The notes: a model not told the origin generated them from the sequence alone. A stretch of 64,000 nt of DNA from Candidatus Aenigmatarchaeota archaeon (GCA_030600555.1 JAUVLW010000001.1:6411-70410); one strand, 5' to 3'. Positions 387-42,373 are shown, numbered from the stretch's first letter. Numbers and translations are program-made.

Positions 387-574
387 GCTTCAGTAGCTCA
401 GCAGGTAGAGCATCTGGCTGTTAACCAGGAGGTCGAAGGTTCGAGGCAACCCTTTTCAAGGTAATTGTTGAAAAAGGTCTGCACCCCAAAAATGCTCATC
501 TTTAGATGGCACCCCTTTTTGCATCGCAAAAAGAAGGACTTAATTGGGGTGAAATGAAAATCCTTCCTGAAGCG
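387..574 (+). tRNA. tRNA-Asn (anticodon GTT) with ~115 nt intron inside the T-loop
   Basis: Read directly from sequence: acceptor GCTTCAG / CTGAAGC plus discriminator G; D-arm GCTC-AGCAGGTA-GAGC; anticodon arm TCTGG-CTGTTAA-CCAGG; variable loop AGGTC; T-stem GAAGG (435-439) / CCTTC (562-566). The T-loop TTCGA|..|AT is interrupted by 445..559. The region is GC-rich in an AT-rich background. Exons: 387..444 and 560..574. Confidence 0.75.
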
Positions 575-20963: not shown

Positions 20964-21662
20964 TTACAATCTTCTTCCTCTCCTACCCCCTTTCTTCCTC
21001 ATGTATCCATGAATCACTGGAGTTGAATCTTCAATTATGTTTATTTTTAAATCTGACCTTGAAATTGCTTTGATTGCTGATTGGGACCCTTTTCCAACTG
21101 ATGATGATTTATGTCCTCCTGGAGCCCTGATTCTTATATCAACCTCAGTAATTCCTCTTTCCAAAGTTTCTTTTACAACCCTTTGGGCCGCAAGCATTCC
21201 CTGAAATGAAGCGCTTTTTAATCTATCTGCTTTTGTAATCATACCCCCGGAAACTCTAGAGATTGTTTCTGCTCCAGTAATGTCAGTAACATGAAGTATT
21301 GTGTTATTTCCGCTTGAATAAATATGAATTACGCCTTTTTGACTTTCCTGTTTTTTTGGTTTGCTTTTAACTTCTTCAATAACCTCTTTTTTCTCTGATT
21401 TTTGGGTTTTTTTTACATTTTCTTCTGTTTTGACCTCATTTTTAATTTTAACTTTTTCTTCAACTTTAGAATCTTTTTTATATTCAGTTTTAATTTTTTC
21501 TTCTGTTTTGACCTTTTCTATCTCTTTAATTTTAACCTCTTTGGATTCGGTGTTTTCTTTTAAATCAGATTCCGGTTTAGTTTTAATTACTTCTTCTGTT
21601 TTCTCAGCTATTCCCGCTTTTTCATCCATTTTCACTTCGTTATTTTCTTTAGGCATAAACAT
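20964..21662 (-). CDS. rps11: 30S ribosomal protein uS11 with ~100 aa Lys/Glu-rich N-terminal extension
   Basis: C-terminal 130 aa (GVIHIYSSGNNTILHVTDITGAETISRVSGGM...RAPGGHKSS...GGRRGRRL) is canonical uS11. The N-terminal 100 aa are low-complexity K/E repeats. Confidence 0.85.
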   Translation of the reverse strand: MFMPKENNEVKMDEKAGIAEKTEEVIKTKPESDLKENTESKEVKIKEIEKVKTEEKIKTEYKKDSKVEEKVKIKNEVKTEENVKKTQKSEKKEVIEEVKSKPKKQESQKGVIHIYSSGNNTILHVTDITGAETISRVSGGMITKADRLKSASFQGMLAAQRVVKETLERGITEVDIRIRAPGGHKSSSVGKGSQSAIKAISRSDLKINIIEDSTPVIHGYMRKKGGRRGRRL

Positions 21663-21714
21663 AAAATAAAATTAAAAATAAAGGACTATAAAAGTTTAAT
21701 TAGAACTAATTATA

Positions 21715-23553: not shown

Positions 23554-25374
23554 ATGGATTCTATGACTTTAGATGAAGCTATAAATAAATTTAAGAAGTT
23601 TGATAATGATTTACCTGAAAAATTTAGAATCTCCAGGCAGGATATACTTAATGGGGATGTTAAAAAATTAATTAAAGCCTATCGAATATTGGCTATGAAA
23701 TATCACCCAGATAGGAATTCATTACCTGAAGCAGAAGAAAAATTTAAGGAAATGAAGTCAGTTTATGAATTTTTAATAGTGGAAGCTGAATATTACCAAG
23801 AGAAAAAAAAAGTAAGTGATCCAGAAGAAGCAAAAAGAGAAAAATCAAAAGAGAAAAAGACTTACGATGATCAGGATACTTTTGAAGAGAAAATTATTGA
23901 TTTGGAAAAACAACGAGAGCAGGGATCAGTCCAAAAGATAATTAATATGTTAACTGGAAAGTCAACACAAGGAGGCGCAATATCTAAAGGGGAACTCCAG
24001 AAAATAGTAAAAAGAATACGAAGAAAAAAAATCCCTTTGATTAAAGATGAAAAACAACGTTTTGAATATCAAAATAAATTATATTTAATAACAAAAATAT
24101 ATAAATTAATAAAAGGCGGCAGGTTTGATGAAAGTAAATCTTTGGAATGTTTTAATAGGTTAATGGATTTGGAAACCAGCATTGATAATGTTTTGATGGC
24201 TCAGGAATTGGAGGGGATAGAAAAATCACCAATGATAAGACCTGATTATGGAGTGACTTCCGTAATCAAAGAAAGAAAAACTGAAACAGAACCTTCGAAA
24301 GAACCGCTTCAACTTGGACCTGGACCAAAACCCGGAGAATATTCCCCAATTATAAGACCTGATTATACAGGAACTTCAAGACCAAAAGGTGAAGGACCTG
24401 TAATAACACCACCACCAAAAAAACCTCTCCAACTAGGTCCAGAAGTTTCTGAACCCGAACCAAACCCGGAACCCGAGCCAAAAACAAAAAAACAGAAAAC
24501 TAGAGGAACTGGAATTCCCAGAAATCTTTGGATACCTTTATTACAATTCTTCGCATTCATTCTCGGAATTTACCTGCTTTTATTTACTCCTTACTGGATT
24601 TTCGGTTTGCCTTTGGTGATTGCGGGTATTCTGCTTTTAATTGGGGTCCAAAGCGAGAGAGAAGGTTTAAGAGAACTTTTTGATTGGTTCCTGCATGATG
24701 ATACAGGGAATAAATGGGGGATGATTCTTGTGGTTGGAATAGGGAGTTTAATTGTATATTTTCAACTTGGTCCTATAATTGCTGCAATACCCCTTTTAGT
24801 AATATTTACCTATTTCGCGTTTGGAAAAAAAGTTGTTGGTGATGGACATTTTGTTGAATATGTTACTGGACTGAGCGGAGCAACGATTGTATTGTACTAT
24901 TTTTTTGGATATTATGTTGCTGCAATACCTCTTTTGTTGGTGATTATAGCCAAGATATTTGGGAGAACTGCGCTCGGTGAACATTTTACTGAATTTATAA
25001 TGACTGGGACAGGAATTGTTCTTTTCATTGGAGGCGCCCAGTATGCGGCATCTTATCTTTATGTTACTTTTTCATGGCCTTTATTGGTGGGATTTGGTCT
25101 TTTCAATGCAATGCTCTTGATAGCATTATGGTCGATGGAAGAAGGTGGTGGAAATGCAGAAAAAGATAAAGCCGAAACTGAAGAGGCTAGAGCAGCGACA
25201 AAATATTATGAAAGTAAGATGGATAGACAGGATAAAAATTTGGATGAATGGAAGGAAGGTGCTGAGAAAGAAAAATTAAAAACAGAGAAGGAAGTGGCTG
25301 AGGAGGAAAAAAAAGCCGCAAAAGCAAAGACAGATGCTGCAGAAGCGGAAGAAGAAGTTGCTAAAGAAAACTAA
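23554..25374 (+). CDS. membrane-anchored J-domain protein
   Basis: N-terminal J domain with LIKAYRILAMKYHPDRN (HPD motif). Then a K/E-rich segment, two ~38 aa Pro-rich tandem repeats, 8-9 TM helices and a K/E/A-rich C-tail. 606 aa. Confidence 0.65.
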   Translation: MDSMTLDEAINKFKKFDNDLPEKFRISRQDILNGDVKKLIKAYRILAMKYHPDRNSLPEAEEKFKEMKSVYEFLIVEAEYYQEKKKVSDPEEAKREKSKEKKTYDDQDTFEEKIIDLEKQREQGSVQKIINMLTGKSTQGGAISKGELQKIVKRIRRKKIPLIKDEKQRFEYQNKLYLITKIYKLIKGGRFDESKSLECFNRLMDLETSIDNVLMAQELEGIEKSPMIRPDYGVTSVIKERKTETEPSKEPLQLGPGPKPGEYSPIIRPDYTGTSRPKGEGPVITPPPKKPLQLGPEVSEPEPNPEPEPKTKKQKTRGTGIPRNLWIPLLQFFAFILGIYLLLFTPYWIFGLPLVIAGILLLIGVQSEREGLRELFDWFLHDDTGNKWGMILVVGIGSLIVYFQLGPIIAAIPLLVIFTYFAFGKKVVGDGHFVEYVTGLSGATIVLYYFFGYYVAAIPLLLVIIAKIFGRTALGEHFTEFIMTGTGIVLFIGGAQYAASYLYVTFSWPLLVGFGLFNAMLLIALWSMEEGGGNAEKDKAETEEARAATKYYESKMDRQDKNLDEWKEGAEKEKLKTEKEVAEEEKKAAKAKTDAAEAEEEVAKEN

Positions 25375-36298: not shown

Positions 36299-36985
36299 TT
36301 AAAATCCATTTGGTACAACGAAAATCAAATCCCTCTTAAAGATTTTATCTTCTCCATTAATTTCAATCTCAGCTCTTTGACCCTGCAGGTCTTTGTTGAT
36401 AATTATTTTTTTGAGTTTTCCTTTCACTCCTTTATTTCTACCTCTTATAATTAAAACCTCAGAGCCTTCTTTGTAAGGCACAACTTCCAGAATTTTTTTG
36501 GATTTAATTGAAATTTTTATTGTGTCAGAAACCATATATTTGTCTTTGTCTTCTTTTGACAATAAGATATTTTTACCATTATGTAAGTTTAACTGAAGAC
36601 CTTTTTTTACCATGGTTTTGCCTATAATTTTGCAGTATTTTGAATCTGCGTCTTTATCGCTGATTTTTTTTAATTCAAAACTTTTCTTTGAAGGAAGCAC
36701 GAGATAATTCTCTTTGTTTCCCTTATTTGTTATAATATCCATCAATCCAACCGGAAACCTTCTTTCTGTAATTTCTTTACCATCCACCAAAATTTCTTTG
36801 TTATTTAGGATTTTCTTTGCGTCTCTGCTTGTTTTACCAAGTTTTAGGATATCCCTGATAACTATTGTAATAGGTATTGATGTTGCTTTTGGATGAGGTC
36901 CCGGGATAGGAACCACTGCAAATCTTTCCTCTTTTCTTGCCAAAGGCCAAAACCCAGGCATTTTTTGTCTTTTTAGGTGTGTCAT
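36299..36985 (-). CDS. rps4e: 30S ribosomal protein S4e
   Basis: MTHLKRQKMPGFWPLARKEERFAVVPIPGPH.. is the eS4 N-terminus. 228 aa. Confidence 0.9.
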   Translation of the reverse strand: MTHLKRQKMPGFWPLARKEERFAVVPIPGPHPKATSIPITIVIRDILKLGKTSRDAKKILNNKEILVDGKEITERRFPVGLMDIITNKGNKENYLVLPSKKSFELKKISDKDADSKYCKIIGKTMVKKGLQLNLHNGKNILLSKEDKDKYMVSDTIKISIKSKKILEVVPYKEGSEVLIIRGRNKGVKGKLKKIIINKDLQGQRAEIEINGEDKIFKRDLIFVVPNGF

Positions 36986-39386: not shown

Positions 39387-40130
39387 TTATTTTTTTATCT
39401 CAGGTTTTACTTCAGTTTCTTTTTTTGATTCTTCAGTTTTTTTTACTTCAACTTTTTCTTCAGATTTTGACTCAATCTTTTTCTCTTTTGATTCTTCTTT
39501 TTTGCTTTCGGTTTTCTCAACCTTTTTTTCTTCAGTTTTAGGTTTTTTAGCAATAGGTTTTGTTTCTATTTTTTCCTCAACTTTGGTTTTCTCTGCCACA
39601 GGAACTTTTGTCTCAGTCTTTTTTGCTTCTTCAATCTGGGTTTTCATTTTTGTTTCAAGTTCTTTGGTTATCTGTGTTTTTAAATCTTTTTTTATTTTGT
39701 CTTTAACTTCTGTTTCAATCTTTGTTTTGGATTCAACTACTTTTTTCCCGGTTTTTTCCTTAAGAATTATTTCAAGATGAGCTGCTTTTATCCTTGAACC
39801 TATATTCCTTTTGTGCCTTCTCCTGTGCATATGAGTTCCTTCCAAAGGCGCTATGTGCAGAATGTACATGTTTTCAGTATCAAGATTCTTAAACTCCGCA
39901 TTCTTTTCAGCGGATAAAATAATATTTAGGACTTCCTTGGTTGTTTTAGGATAATATCGACCCTCAATACTCCTTTTTGATTTCAAAACATCTTCAAGGA
40001 ACTGTTTTGCCACAGGCAAACCAAGACCTCTTACTGATTTGCACACTGGTTTAGCGTTTTTAACCGATATTCTCAGGTTATTTGAGTATGCTTTTGCCAC
40101 ATTATCCCCCTCAACTTTTCTACTATACAT
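39387..40130 (-). CDS. rpl22: 50S ribosomal protein uL22 with ~100 aa Lys/Glu-rich C-terminal extension
   Basis: The N-terminal 150 aa (..ENMYILHIAPLEGTHMHRRRHKRNIGSRIKAAHLEIILKEK) are canonical archaeal uL22. They are followed by a K/E/T low-complexity tail. Confidence 0.8.
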   Translation of the reverse strand: MYSRKVEGDNVAKAYSNNLRISVKNAKPVCKSVRGLGLPVAKQFLEDVLKSKRSIEGRYYPKTTKEVLNIILSAEKNAEFKNLDTENMYILHIAPLEGTHMHRRRHKRNIGSRIKAAHLEIILKEKTGKKVVESKTKIETEVKDKIKKDLKTQITKELETKMKTQIEEAKKTETKVPVAEKTKVEEKIETKPIAKKPKTEEKKVEKTESKKEESKEKKIESKSEEKVEVKKTEESKKETEVKPEIKK

Positions 40131-40132
40131 AA

Positions 40133-40519
40133 TTATTTCTTGGATGCGCTAAACTTTGTCCCCTTTGAAGCGCCTATACCAGCAGAACCATGATGAAGTG
40201 ATTTTCTTGTTAATGCGAATTCACCAAACCTGCGTCCCACAAGTTCTTCAGTAATATCAACTGCGACAAATTCTTTTCCATTATGAATCCCGATTTTGTG
40301 TCCTATCATTTCAGGTAAAATTATCATATCTCTACAATGGGTTTTAATAAATTTTCGCCCTTTCTGCTCTTTAAACTTGTCTATTGCGGCTAATACTCTA
40401 TTTTCTTCTTCTGTAAGCCCTCTCTTAAATTTCCTTCTTATTTCAGAGGGTAATAACTCTACAAATTCTTCTCTTGAGAGTTCTTTTGGCTTTTTCCCCT
40501 TGTAAATAAATTCTGCCAT
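40133..40519 (-). CDS. rps19: 30S ribosomal protein uS19
   Basis: ..[26 protein letters not shown].. is the uS19 signature. It sits immediately upstream of uL22, as in the S10 operon. Confidence 0.9.
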
Positions 40520-40585: not shown

Positions 40586-42373
40586 ATGAATCTAAAAAAA
40601 TTGCAGGAATTCCTCGGTTCTGGCAAGGATTTGGGTGAATTGCCCGATTATTTTTCAATAATTGTTGATGAGAGAAAATTTGAGTTTAAAAGAACCCCCA
40701 AAAAGCCCCAAAAACTGGTAAAATACCCAAGAGACAAATTAATGGAAGAAATAAAATGGCCTCAGAATGCGGGAACCTATGATATTGGGGATGTTGCAAA
40801 TCCGGTTATGTTAATCTGCCCTTCTCAGGACAGGGAATTGCAGGAACATGCAATTTATGCGGGAGTTTGCGCAACAGGACCTTGTTTAACCCCGAGAGGA
40901 GTTGAACTCCTGATAACAAACACAATCTCAAACCCAAACATAAGGTTTTTAATTCTTGCGGGAAGAGATTCCGGGCATTTAACCGGTGATTTAATTGAAA
41001 ATTTAATACTGAACGGGGTTGATGAAAACAGAAAGGTAATAGGCTCAAAGTGCCCTTCTTTCCCTTATCTCCCAAACCTGAGTCTGGAAGCAATAAATAG
41101 ATTTAGGGAACAGCTGGAAGTTATAGATTTGATTGGGGTTTTTGATTCCACCCTGATAACTTTAATAATTAGGCTTTGTTTGCAGGAACCGATTAATGCT
41201 TATGAATTGACCTATGAAGAAAAACCTTCATCTCTCTTTAAACAAATTGAGGACCCTAAGAAAATCACTCACATCTTATTTGATAAAGGTGCTGTGAGCA
41301 AAGAACCCATGGTCTTATCTTATTCTTTAGTGGATTTGCAGTCCCTTCCTTACGAAGCATTTTCAACAACAGGAACCACGGTTTACGCTTCCACTGTTGA
41401 GGAAGCCCACAAAATACTTGTTGACTTTTTAAAAAGAGCGGGGGTGTGGGTAAAACAGGAGAGCAATAGGATGGGTCTGGATGTAATCGCAACAACAATT
41501 GTTGTGGAAAATCTTGAGCAGGGTCTTTACCCAAAAAATTACAAACCTGTGGAATGGGTTGATTCTGATGAAAAAATGAAACAATATTTGAAAGCTTATG
41601 GTGTGTGGAATTACTTAGTTCCCTGGAGCAATGTTGTGTTTGATGAAAATCTTGAGAAGACAGTTCCTTCAATTCCGGACATGAAATATTTATCTTATTC
41701 TTACGGAACGAGGATTACCGCAAAGGGAATGGATTCCTGCAAAAAAGAAGAGAGGGGAGGAATTATTAAATTGGTGAAATCTTTCCAGGAAAAACATTAT
41801 GAAAAAGTTCCTAATTTTAAATCAATCCTAAATTTTTATCATGATTTGGAAAGTGTTCAAAAACAAAGTTTTAATCAGTTGCTGGCAATTACCAAAGCAT
41901 GTTCGATTATTGTTAAGGATAATATTACCGGGACTTACAGACCTTACCTGCAGTTGCACGTTGCGGATGATTTAAAACCAATTGACCCAAGAAAAATGCA
42001 TAATCCATGTTATTGCATGTTTGTTCCGTTTTTCAGGAAAACTTATTATAGGGAATATAATAAGGATGGAATTACTCGCAGGTTTTTAGTTCCTTCTTTG
42101 AGCGTGGAGAAAGAAACAGATTTGAAATATGATTGGTTGTTTATGCCATCGGCTTATTTGAGAGCCCATGACTGGTTTGCTTTTCCCGCAAATGTCCACG
42201 GGTCTTTAGCTATGGGGAATTTTATATTGCAGAATATTGAACAGGAGACCGGGAAGAAAATTCCCTGGGGTTGTTATTCACATCATGCTTCGTCATTGCA
42301 TCTTGTTGATTATTCTTTTGATAAAAATATGCTTGAAAAACTTAACCGAACTTTACCTTCAGACAAACATTGA
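40586..42373 (+). CDS. large fusion protein with thymidylate-synthase-like C-terminal domain
   Basis: C-terminal HNPCYCMFV (compare ThyA PCH), DWLFMPSAYLRAHDWFAFPANVHGSLAMGNF (compare DVFLGLPFNIASYALL) and CYSHHASSLHLVDY (compare GDTHLY). The N-terminal ~350 aa are of unknown family. Confidence 0.4.
   Translation: MNLKKLQEFLGSGKDLGELPDYFSIIVDERKFEFKRTPKKPQKLVKYPRDKLMEEIKWPQNAGTYDIGDVANPVMLICPSQDRELQEHAIYAGVCATGPCLTPRGVELLITNTISNPNIRFLILAGRDSGHLTGDLIENLILNGVDENRKVIGSKCPSFPYLPNLSLEAINRFREQLEVIDLIGVFDSTLITLIIRLCLQEPINAYELTYEEKPSSLFKQIEDPKKITHILFDKGAVSKEPMVLSYSLVDLQSLPYEAFSTTGTTVYASTVEEAHKILVDFLKRAGVWVKQESNRMGLDVIATTIVVENLEQGLYPKNYKPVEWVDSDEKMKQYLKAYGVWNYLVPWSNVVFDENLEKTVPSIPDMKYLSYSYGTRITAKGMDSCKKEERGGIIKLVKSFQEKHYEKVPNFKSILNFYHDLESVQKQSFNQLLAITKACSIIVKDNITGTYRPYLQLHVADDLKPIDPRKMHNPCYCMFVPFFRKTYYREYNKDGITRRFLVPSLSVEKETDLKYDWLFMPSAYLRAHDWFAFPANVHGSLAMGNFILQNIEQETGKKIPWGCYSHHASSLHLVDYSFDKNMLEKLNRTLPSDKH

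Follow-up and report, generated by a model that had tools for sequence, protein, structure and literature searches.

Long Lys/Glu-rich tails on ribosomal proteins uS11 and uL22 of a Candidatus Aenigmatarchaeota archaeon

Among known proteins, those of the ribosome are the most conserved, and it is customary to take their lengths as fixed within a domain of life. In a 64,000-nt stretch of DNA (the window) from a Candidatus Aenigmatarchaeota archaeon (GCA_030600555.1 JAUVLW010000001.1:6411-70410), two of them, uS11 and uL22, are nearly doubled in length by tails rich in lysine (K) and glutamate (E). What are these tails, and what might they do on the ribosome? A preliminary description, made from the sequence alone, had placed an extension of about 100 residues at the N-terminus of uS11 and another at the C-terminus of uL22, had likened both to eukaryote-type ribosomal-protein extensions and to histone-H1-like tails, and had suggested a lineage-specific adaptation of the ribosome or of the binding of ribosomal RNA (rRNA). 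Our analyses establish that the tails exist, occur across the lineage, evolve fast, are constrained in composition and are predicted to be disordered. We favour, with moderate confidence, the explanation that they are genuine translated, disordered, charge-balanced Lys/Glu additions that grew at permissive termini, with a composition under selection and a probable role as a coat or spacer.

The uS11 open reading frame (ORF; 20964..21662, minus strand) encodes 232 aa. Pfam Ribosomal_S11 (PF00411) matches aa 110-228 (E 3.9e-32; 111.4 bits against a cut-off of 25.1) over the entire profile (positions 1-110 of 110), placing the protein in this family. In a phmmer search, Pyrococcus uS11 aligned over its residues 9-137 with aa 103-232 (E 5e-44), and the archaeal uS11 chains among the best 60 PDB matches are all 126-141 aa long. 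Therefore about 100-108 N-terminal residues are extra relative to Pyrococcus uS11 and the Pfam core, which bears out the N-terminal extension first described. The core with its stop codon, delimited by the Pfam match, the Pyrococcus alignment and high predicted-structure confidence, occupies 20964..21338 (minus), and the K/E-rich tail, a predicted disordered polyampholyte upstream of the Pfam match, comprises codons 1-108 (21339..21662, minus).

The uL22 ORF (39387..40130, minus) encodes 247 aa. Pfam Ribosomal_L22 (PF00237) matches aa 14-107 (E 4e-14; 53.1 bits against a cut-off of 28), an assignment to the family that reaches across profile positions 1-84 of 104 only. In phmmer alignments, archaeal uL22 chains (150-156 aa) terminate at about residue 125 of the query, leaving about 122 C-terminal residues extra; the extension is thus real, and somewhat longer than the roughly 100 residues originally given. 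We assign codons 1-125 to the core (39756..40130, minus) and codons 126-247 plus the stop to a K/E/T-rich tail (39387..39755, minus), recognised by its composition, open frame and low structural confidence. The core itself lacks a loop of about 18 aa near aa 55-60, seen as a gap in the split alignment to archaeal chains. The loop, which is absent from uL22 of this Aenigmatarchaeota clade, has the consensus ...PFKRFNxxVGHRKGxG...; archaeal and eukaryotic uL22 possess it, as do distant homologues (P0164-P0167). Several of the loop-lacking proteins carry the NCBI label 'hypothetical'.

Judged from their reading frames, both tails must be translated. Ahead of the uS11 core, in-frame ATG, GTG or TTG codons occur only at codons 1, 3, 10 and 12, and therefore the core would always be made with at least 97 tail residues. 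Internal starts are likewise absent in six related genomes, except for a TTG at codon 63 (L003) and a GTG at codon 23 (L007). The ATG codons 1 and 3 (MFMPKEN...; 21656..21662, minus) are kept in all five close genomes, and database calls begin at the second (MPKEN...). Immediately upstream lies a 39-nt block (21663..21701, minus) that is identical in the window and four Aenigmatarchaeota relatives (L003-L006), while the coding tail just downstream diverges. Since the synonymous divergence of the adjacent uS11 core reaches 0.4-0.65, we conclude that the block is under selection. It contains a TATA-like octamer, TTTTATAG (21686..21693), 23 nt before the uS11 ATG, and is a putative archaeal promoter, from which the uS11 mRNA would start with no leader or almost none. 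For uS11, a start codon or promoter inside the tail was ruled out, as there is no in-frame start past codon 12 and the conserved block precedes the long ORF.

For uL22, no in-frame stop was found before the end of the tail, whose frame is continuous with the core; the other two frames contain 9 and 17 stops. Runs of four or more T are absent from the coding strand of both tails, which rules out termination within them. Accordingly, the internal starts, promoters or terminators by which the extensions might have been excluded were not found. Given the local base composition, a frame would stay open over the length of the tail with a chance of 6e-5 in uS11 and 1e-4 in uL22, and the frame stays open in orthologues from independent Aenigmatarchaeota metagenome-assembled genomes (MAGs), many in-frame indels notwithstanding. 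An NCBI database record matches the uL22 protein with 100% identity, and the protein is also encoded in two independent read-set assemblies; it is therefore no assembly artefact. Two antisense ORFs lie over the tails (21361..21669, plus, 102 aa; 39502..39780, plus, 92 aa). Both are rich in F, L and S and are not to be taken for genes; AAA and GAA give no stop when reverse-complemented, and the purine-rich coding strand of K/E codons therefore yields such frames as a by-product.

The low-complexity K/E peptides reported for the two tails are present in the translations. The uS11 tail, counted as 106 aa, contains 30 K, 25 E, 3 D and no R, with a net charge of +2; the uL22 tail (122 aa) contains 40 K, 28 E, 2 D and no R, with a net charge of +10. 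About 55% of residues are charged, K roughly equals E, the net charge per residue is +0.02 and +0.08, respectively, Leu and aromatic residues are nearly absent, and Ala plus Pro make up about 5%. Although the GC content of the tails (27-28%) is below that of the cores (37-38%) and of the window (33%), their composition differs from what mutation bias alone predicts. With codons drawn at random from the tails' base composition, Arg would be expected at about 10%, Glu at 8% and Asn at 9%, against 0%, 23% and 2% observed, that is, a threefold enrichment in Glu and a fourfold depletion in Asn. The lack of Arg in 228 tail residues has a probability of 3e-11 on local base composition and of 3e-4 at the Arg frequency of the proteome. 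The charges are also mixed more evenly than in shuffled sequences (patterning parameter kappa 0.04-0.09 against 0.11-0.15). Opposite-sign and same-sign pairs in the uS11 and uL22 tails number 16:17 and 19:24 at i+4, and 24:10 and 35:10 at i+2.

This composition is local. A 40-aa stretch with at least 50% K+E occurs in only 3 of about 76 window ORFs, namely uS11, uL22 and a J-domain membrane protein, and K+E across the window ORFs is 19% overall. At each relative's locus, K/E-rich segments were found in only 1-2 of 4-25 ORFs. A genome-wide K/E bias was considered as the only cause of the tails and ruled out, with 3 of about 76 window ORFs affected.

Both H1 tails and the classical extensions of ribosomal proteins are strongly basic. 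The tails studied here are near-neutral polyampholytes, devoid of Arg and poor in Ala and Pro, and the histone-H1-like reading was ruled out on net charge. The implied binding of rRNA fits poorly with a charge near neutral, the lack of Arg and a Glu content threefold above the base-composition expectation. We conclude that the interpretation first offered is only partly supported and that RNA binding through charge is unlikely.

The tails evolve at about ten times the rate of the cores. Between uS11 and four close relatives, the ratio of nonsynonymous to synonymous divergence (dN/dS) is 0.23-0.72 in the tail and 0.03-0.08 in the core, with 14-48 gap columns per pair; between uL22 and three close relatives it is 0.23-0.41 and 0.04-0.07, with 21-61 gap columns. 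The tail values, which are lower bounds because the aligner inflates identity in low-complexity sequence, are below 1. The best-conserved parts of the uS11 tail are its N-terminal ~10 residues and the junction with the core, and uS11 relatives without a tail begin M-x-E-E-x-K-G-I-V-H-I-Y; the tail therefore looks like an expansion within an ancestral short N-terminal segment. Short-repeat copy number differs among near-identical homologues (P0003 and L005; P0135 and P0136). Evidence for growth by duplication comes chiefly from such comparisons, because Tandem Repeats Finder gave only weak and short arrays in the window tails. Proteins of 129 aa that share 74-77% identity with the window uS11 over the aligned region lack the tail.

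How widely do such tails occur? The closest genomes are labelled Candidatus Aenigmatarchaeota, in agreement with the lineage specificity proposed earlier. We took the best 120 uS11 homologues, of which 107 could be scored, from a search biased toward tails because the query included one. Of the 107, 40 had N-terminal tails of 40 aa or more, the longest 146 aa, and 62 had tails of at most 15 aa. Among the scored homologues, the charged fraction of the tails is 0.55±0.08 and the net charge per residue +0.07±0.06; their sequence is not alignable across lineages, and their physical character is constant. In a less biased sample of 65 usable metagenomic uS11 loci retrieved with core-only patterns, the N-terminal extension reached at least 40 aa in 13 loci when counted from the first ATG and in 7 under the most conservative start, with K/E, Q/P/E and S/E/T flavours. 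Searching 50%-identity representatives with the uS11 core gave no information on prevalence; the top matches were mostly long, with upstream sequence that is not K/E-rich and a eukaryotic-looking core, and we take them to be mis-predicted gene models. For uL22, nearly all of 47 relatives have C-terminal tails of about 20-140 aa.

Named sources of tailed uS11 records include, by their labels, Aenigmarchaeota, Altiarchaeota, Nanoarchaeota and Heimdallarchaeota. The comparison with orthologues in DPANN and other archaea that had been proposed thus recovers several tailed records, but the tails are not confined to DPANN. A Heimdallarchaeota-labelled uS11 (P0114, P0317; NCBI MCG3260183.1) of 251 aa has a eukaryote-like core and an N-terminal K/E/P-rich tail of 128 aa and, going by such sequences, K/E tails extend beyond DPANN. 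Three further proteins (P0034, P0039, P0040) share that core and have K/E/T-rich N-terminal tails of 64-76 aa; some tails of this type contain exact tandem repeats, KTEEKSKDKTEV, in four copies. Two uS11 representatives (P0232, P0275) carry acidic N-terminal extensions rich in P, D, A and E, with a net charge per residue of -0.21. Tail composition may follow the charge style of the proteome, for example in halophiles.

Two low-GC unclassified archaeal contigs, L013 (1..20756) and L014 (3664..11958), contain a canonical ribosomal-protein operon in which eS19, eL31, uL4, uS3, uL24, eL32, uS17 and uL22 all have K/E-rich tails. With so many proteins affected, the habit is ribosome-wide in some lineages. 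The eS19 tail on these contigs comprises four copies of an 18-aa repeat, and uS5 there is 317 aa long with extra sequence at each end. We found no description of tails of this kind on ribosomal proteins of DPANN archaea or Aenigmatarchaeota in full-text literature searches.

AlphaFold2, run with homologue alignments for both proteins, predicted confident cores, with a predicted local distance difference test (pLDDT) score mostly above 90 for uS11 and of 96-98 for uL22, and low-confidence tails (pLDDT 44-54 in uS11 and, past aa 172, 37-49 in uL22). The one helix of modest confidence in the tails spans uL22 aa 135-171 (39618..39728, minus; pLDDT 49-70) and has I, V, L or M exactly every fourth residue from 138 to 166. 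A random coil would show less regularity; the segment is kept in two relatives (L009, L010) and partly deleted in a third (L012). A charged single alpha-helix was ruled out for both tails, on a pLDDT below 55 in the uS11 tail and at most 70 in the one uL22 helix, and on charge spacing, as opposite charges show no excess at i/i+4 and favour i/i+2. By analogy with solved homologues, both tail termini would face the solvent, the uS11 N-terminus on the 30S platform and the uL22 C-terminus on the solvent face of the 50S subunit. In the ribosome, uL22 is located close to the exit of the polypeptide tunnel. On the platform side, the chamber that holds the mRNA exit and the Shine-Dalgarno duplex is lined by uS11 (PMC7531240).

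Similar additions are known outside the archaea. According to a study of Mycoplasma pneumoniae (Xue et al. 2022, PMC9534751), extensions longer than 20 aa occur on 11 of 52 ribosomal proteins and are mostly predicted to be disordered; the extension of L22, among nine C-terminal ones, has resolved secondary structure; disrupting the extensions affects fitness; and such extensions are common across bacteria. S6, L22 and L29 are named there as proteins with extensions, and uS11 is not among these three (PMC9534751). Extra terminal regions have also been described on ribosomal proteins of bacteria of the candidate phyla radiation (CPR; Tsurumaki et al. 2022, PMC9297842). The archaeal tails resemble both systems in being additions longer than 20 aa at the N- or C-terminus of universal ribosomal proteins, specific to a lineage and mostly predicted to be disordered, with uL22 included, in small genomes and with a patchy distribution. 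At about 100 and 122 aa, they fall within the definition of an extension given there (more than 20 aa past the reference terminus and predicted disordered; PMC9534751). They differ from both in their archaeal host and in their greater length (105-122 aa), which nearly doubles each protein.

The likeness to eukaryotic extensions holds in part. Eukaryotic uS11 (RPS14, ~20 N-terminal aa) and uL22 (RPL17, ~30 C-terminal aa) are extended at the same termini of the same proteins, but the archaeal tails (105-122 aa) are variable and predicted to be disordered, the eukaryotic ones are four to five times shorter, and homology is not established. Against eukaryotic reference chains of 151 aa (uS11) and 184 aa (uL22), the phmmer alignments run into K/E-containing segments (query 88-232 to human uS11 7-151; 56-152 to human uL22 80-177); common descent is not demonstrable because these matches consist of low-complexity sequence only. 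The H1-like extensions of mosquito ribosomal proteins are comparable as long, low-complexity, lysine-rich additions that arose independently in one lineage. The mosquito extensions are strongly basic and rich in K, A and P, unlike the archaeal tails, in which K roughly equals E, the net charge is near zero and Ala plus Pro amount to about 5%.

In physical terms, the archaeal tails resemble strong polyampholytes, for which a high charged fraction and a low kappa are the signature of an expanded chain, and differ from single alpha-helices in placing opposite charges at i/i+2 instead of i/i+4 and in their low helix confidence. KEKE motifs, a merely compositional label, are said to have been defined by Realini et al. 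in 1994 as at least 12 residues with more than 60% K+E/D, no W, Y, F or P and no run of five like charges. Four uS11 and three uL22 stretches, some overlapping, fit these criteria, for example uL22 aa 198-242 (69%). McGrath et al. (2026, 10.64898/2026.06.18.733196) propose a coat that consists of 'flexible protein fragments', in which ribosomal-protein termini that are unresolved, disordered and poor in aromatics serve as a functional surface; their fragments were taken from solved structures, the bacterial ones are Glu-enriched, and archaea were excluded. Our tails share with that coat the idea of disordered, aromatic-poor ribosomal termini, a likeness by description rather than by matched lengths or compositions.

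From these observations we infer where the tails sit, how they grew and what they do. In-frame duplication or slippage in A-rich runs of AAA and GAA codons would lengthen and shorten the tails at permissive termini. Their exact sequence would be nearly free to drift, with selection keeping some 55% of the residues charged, K and E about balanced, Arg absent, Leu and aromatics scarce and the charges well mixed. On the surface of the ribosome, the tails would most probably act as a coat or spacer that is highly hydrated, flexible and non-sticky, rather than as an added element for RNA binding or catalysis. Over its first ~40 residues, the uL22 tail probably forms a helix that docks on or near the 50S surface; such docking would parallel the structured C-terminal extension of uL22 reported for Mycoplasma pneumoniae. 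Several points weigh against this explanation. The strict four-residue hydrophobic periodicity of the uL22 tail hints at a specific interaction beyond a generic coat. The compositional constraint might reflect mere avoidance of harmful residues, with no positive function, and dN/dS is biased downward in low-complexity sequence, so that the strength of selection is uncertain. The tails could be removed from mature ribosomes by cleavage. Finally, the fairly close 129-aa relatives are tail-less, and the tails are therefore dispensable in some lineages.

The rival closest to a coat or spacer under selection is effectively neutral low-complexity growth, in which slippage in AAA/GAA-rich DNA of 33% GC is filtered only against stops and against harmful, sticky or hydrophobic residues. 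We regard it as unlikely, although it would account for in-frame gaps of up to 48-61 alignment columns between close relatives, for the absence of the tail at 74-77% identity, for a tail GC of 27-28% next to cores of 37-38%, for repeat copy numbers that vary among near-identical homologues, and for lineage flavours (K/E, Q/P/E, S/E/T, acidic) that follow local composition. It fits less well with a dN/dS that is always below 1, with charges so evenly mixed and Glu raised threefold, or with an absence of Arg when AGA is one transition from AAA. Moreover, only 3 of about 76 ORFs are affected in an AT-rich genome, and the same charge balance recurs across deep divergences in records labelled with four phyla. 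At the opposite extreme, the tails might be annotation or assembly artefacts, with the true uS11 start lying internally or the uL22 tail arising from a frameshift or chimeric join. Gene callers do differ on the start in relatives (MPKEN... or MFMPKEN...), and long antisense 'shadow' ORFs overlie the tails, but this reading is essentially refuted by the absence of a usable internal start codon, the promoter-like block before the long ORF, the identical uL22 in three independent assemblies, and the same architecture in independent MAGs and metagenomes.

Two further readings grant the tails a specific partner. As rRNA-binding or compensatory extensions, they would wrap rRNA or fill the space of lost ribosomal proteins or rRNA segments, as eukaryotic extensions and mitoribosomal 'patches' do. 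The termini are those of the eukaryote-specific uS11 and uL22 extensions, the rRNA-facing ~18-aa loop of uL22 has been lost in a lineage with rearranged ribosomal-protein operons, and the proximal uL22 tail is predicted to be helical with a regular hydrophobic stripe; we still consider the reading improbable, given a net charge of about zero and the lack of Arg, unlike RNA-binding extensions, a length and sequence unconserved even in close relatives, low AlphaFold2 confidence, and uS11 tails that sit on ordinary cores and are missing in close relatives. Very improbable, in our view, is a role as recruitment hubs, with the uS11 tail catching mRNA or initiation factors and the uL22 tail recruiting nascent-chain factors, such as the J-domain protein, through KEKE-type contacts. 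The generally known location of uL22 near the tunnel exit, the KEKE-like stretches in both tails, the conservation of a K/E-tailed J-domain protein in the lineage and a uS11 tail whose first ~10 residues and junction are better conserved than its middle would suit it, as would the border that uS11 forms with the mRNA-exit chamber. The body of the tails yielded no conserved linear motif, which speaks against it, and the tails on eight L013/L014 ribosomal proteins argue for a generic property.

A coat or spacer under compositional selection remains the explanation that we prefer. A broader version, that Arg-free, charge-neutral Lys/Glu tails are a ribosome-wide selected adaptation common to DPANN and some Asgard archaea, seems to us rather improbable. 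We speculate that a tethered polyampholyte brush might set the spacing or solubility of ribosomes, or tune the handling of mRNA and nascent chains, in very small cells, and that a relationship might exist between the uS11 tail of the Heimdallarchaeota record and the short, K/E-rich extension at the N-terminus of eukaryotic uS11. If the tails are functional, the ribosome surfaces of uncultured archaea differ from the picture drawn from model organisms; structures would miss such tails because they average out. The novelty lies in an archaeal example of disordered terminal extensions known on ribosomal proteins elsewhere, and as the phenomenon is already established in bacteria and eukaryotes, the archaeal tails extend it and overturn nothing. 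For annotation, the choice of uS11 start is inconsistent across databases and several uL22 proteins are called 'hypothetical' by gene callers and NCBI. Concatenated ribosomal-protein alignments need these tail regions trimmed.

The third K/E-rich protein of the window, the J-domain membrane protein (23554..25374, plus; DnaJ domain PF00226), has a K/E/A-rich C-terminal tail at aa 547-606, confirmed by segment scan and translation as the similar tail that had been reported. It also has a second, shorter K/E stretch at aa 60-102. At about 60 aa, its tail is shorter than those of uS11 and uL22, contains more E and A, and includes Arg; the orthologue in relative L006 retains it. The remaining ribosomal proteins of the window, uS19 and eS4, are tail-less. 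uS19 (40133..40519, minus; 128 aa, PF00203), which lacks a K/E-rich segment, lies 2 nt upstream of the uL22 ATG.

The ribosomal-protein clusters of the window are fragmented. uS19 and uL22 stand alone (39387..40519), with uL2 not upstream and uS3 not downstream; eS4 (36299..36985) is isolated, and uS11 is a single gene next to a divergent gene for an RNase PH-domain, exosome subunit-like protein. In relative L009 (8233..10687), two unrelated genes sit between uS19 and uL22. No rRNA was found in the 64,000-nt window and ARAGORN reported zero tRNAs in it; an Rfam tRNA match at 394..455 (plus; 38.7 bits, model positions 8-63 of 71) may represent an atypical, split or intron-containing tRNA. A gene encoding 595 aa (40586..42373, plus) diverges from uS19, and its synteny with uS19 is conserved. 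Its orthologues in L009-L012 match Pfam MtrA (PF04208), which is unexpected in a DPANN archaeon.

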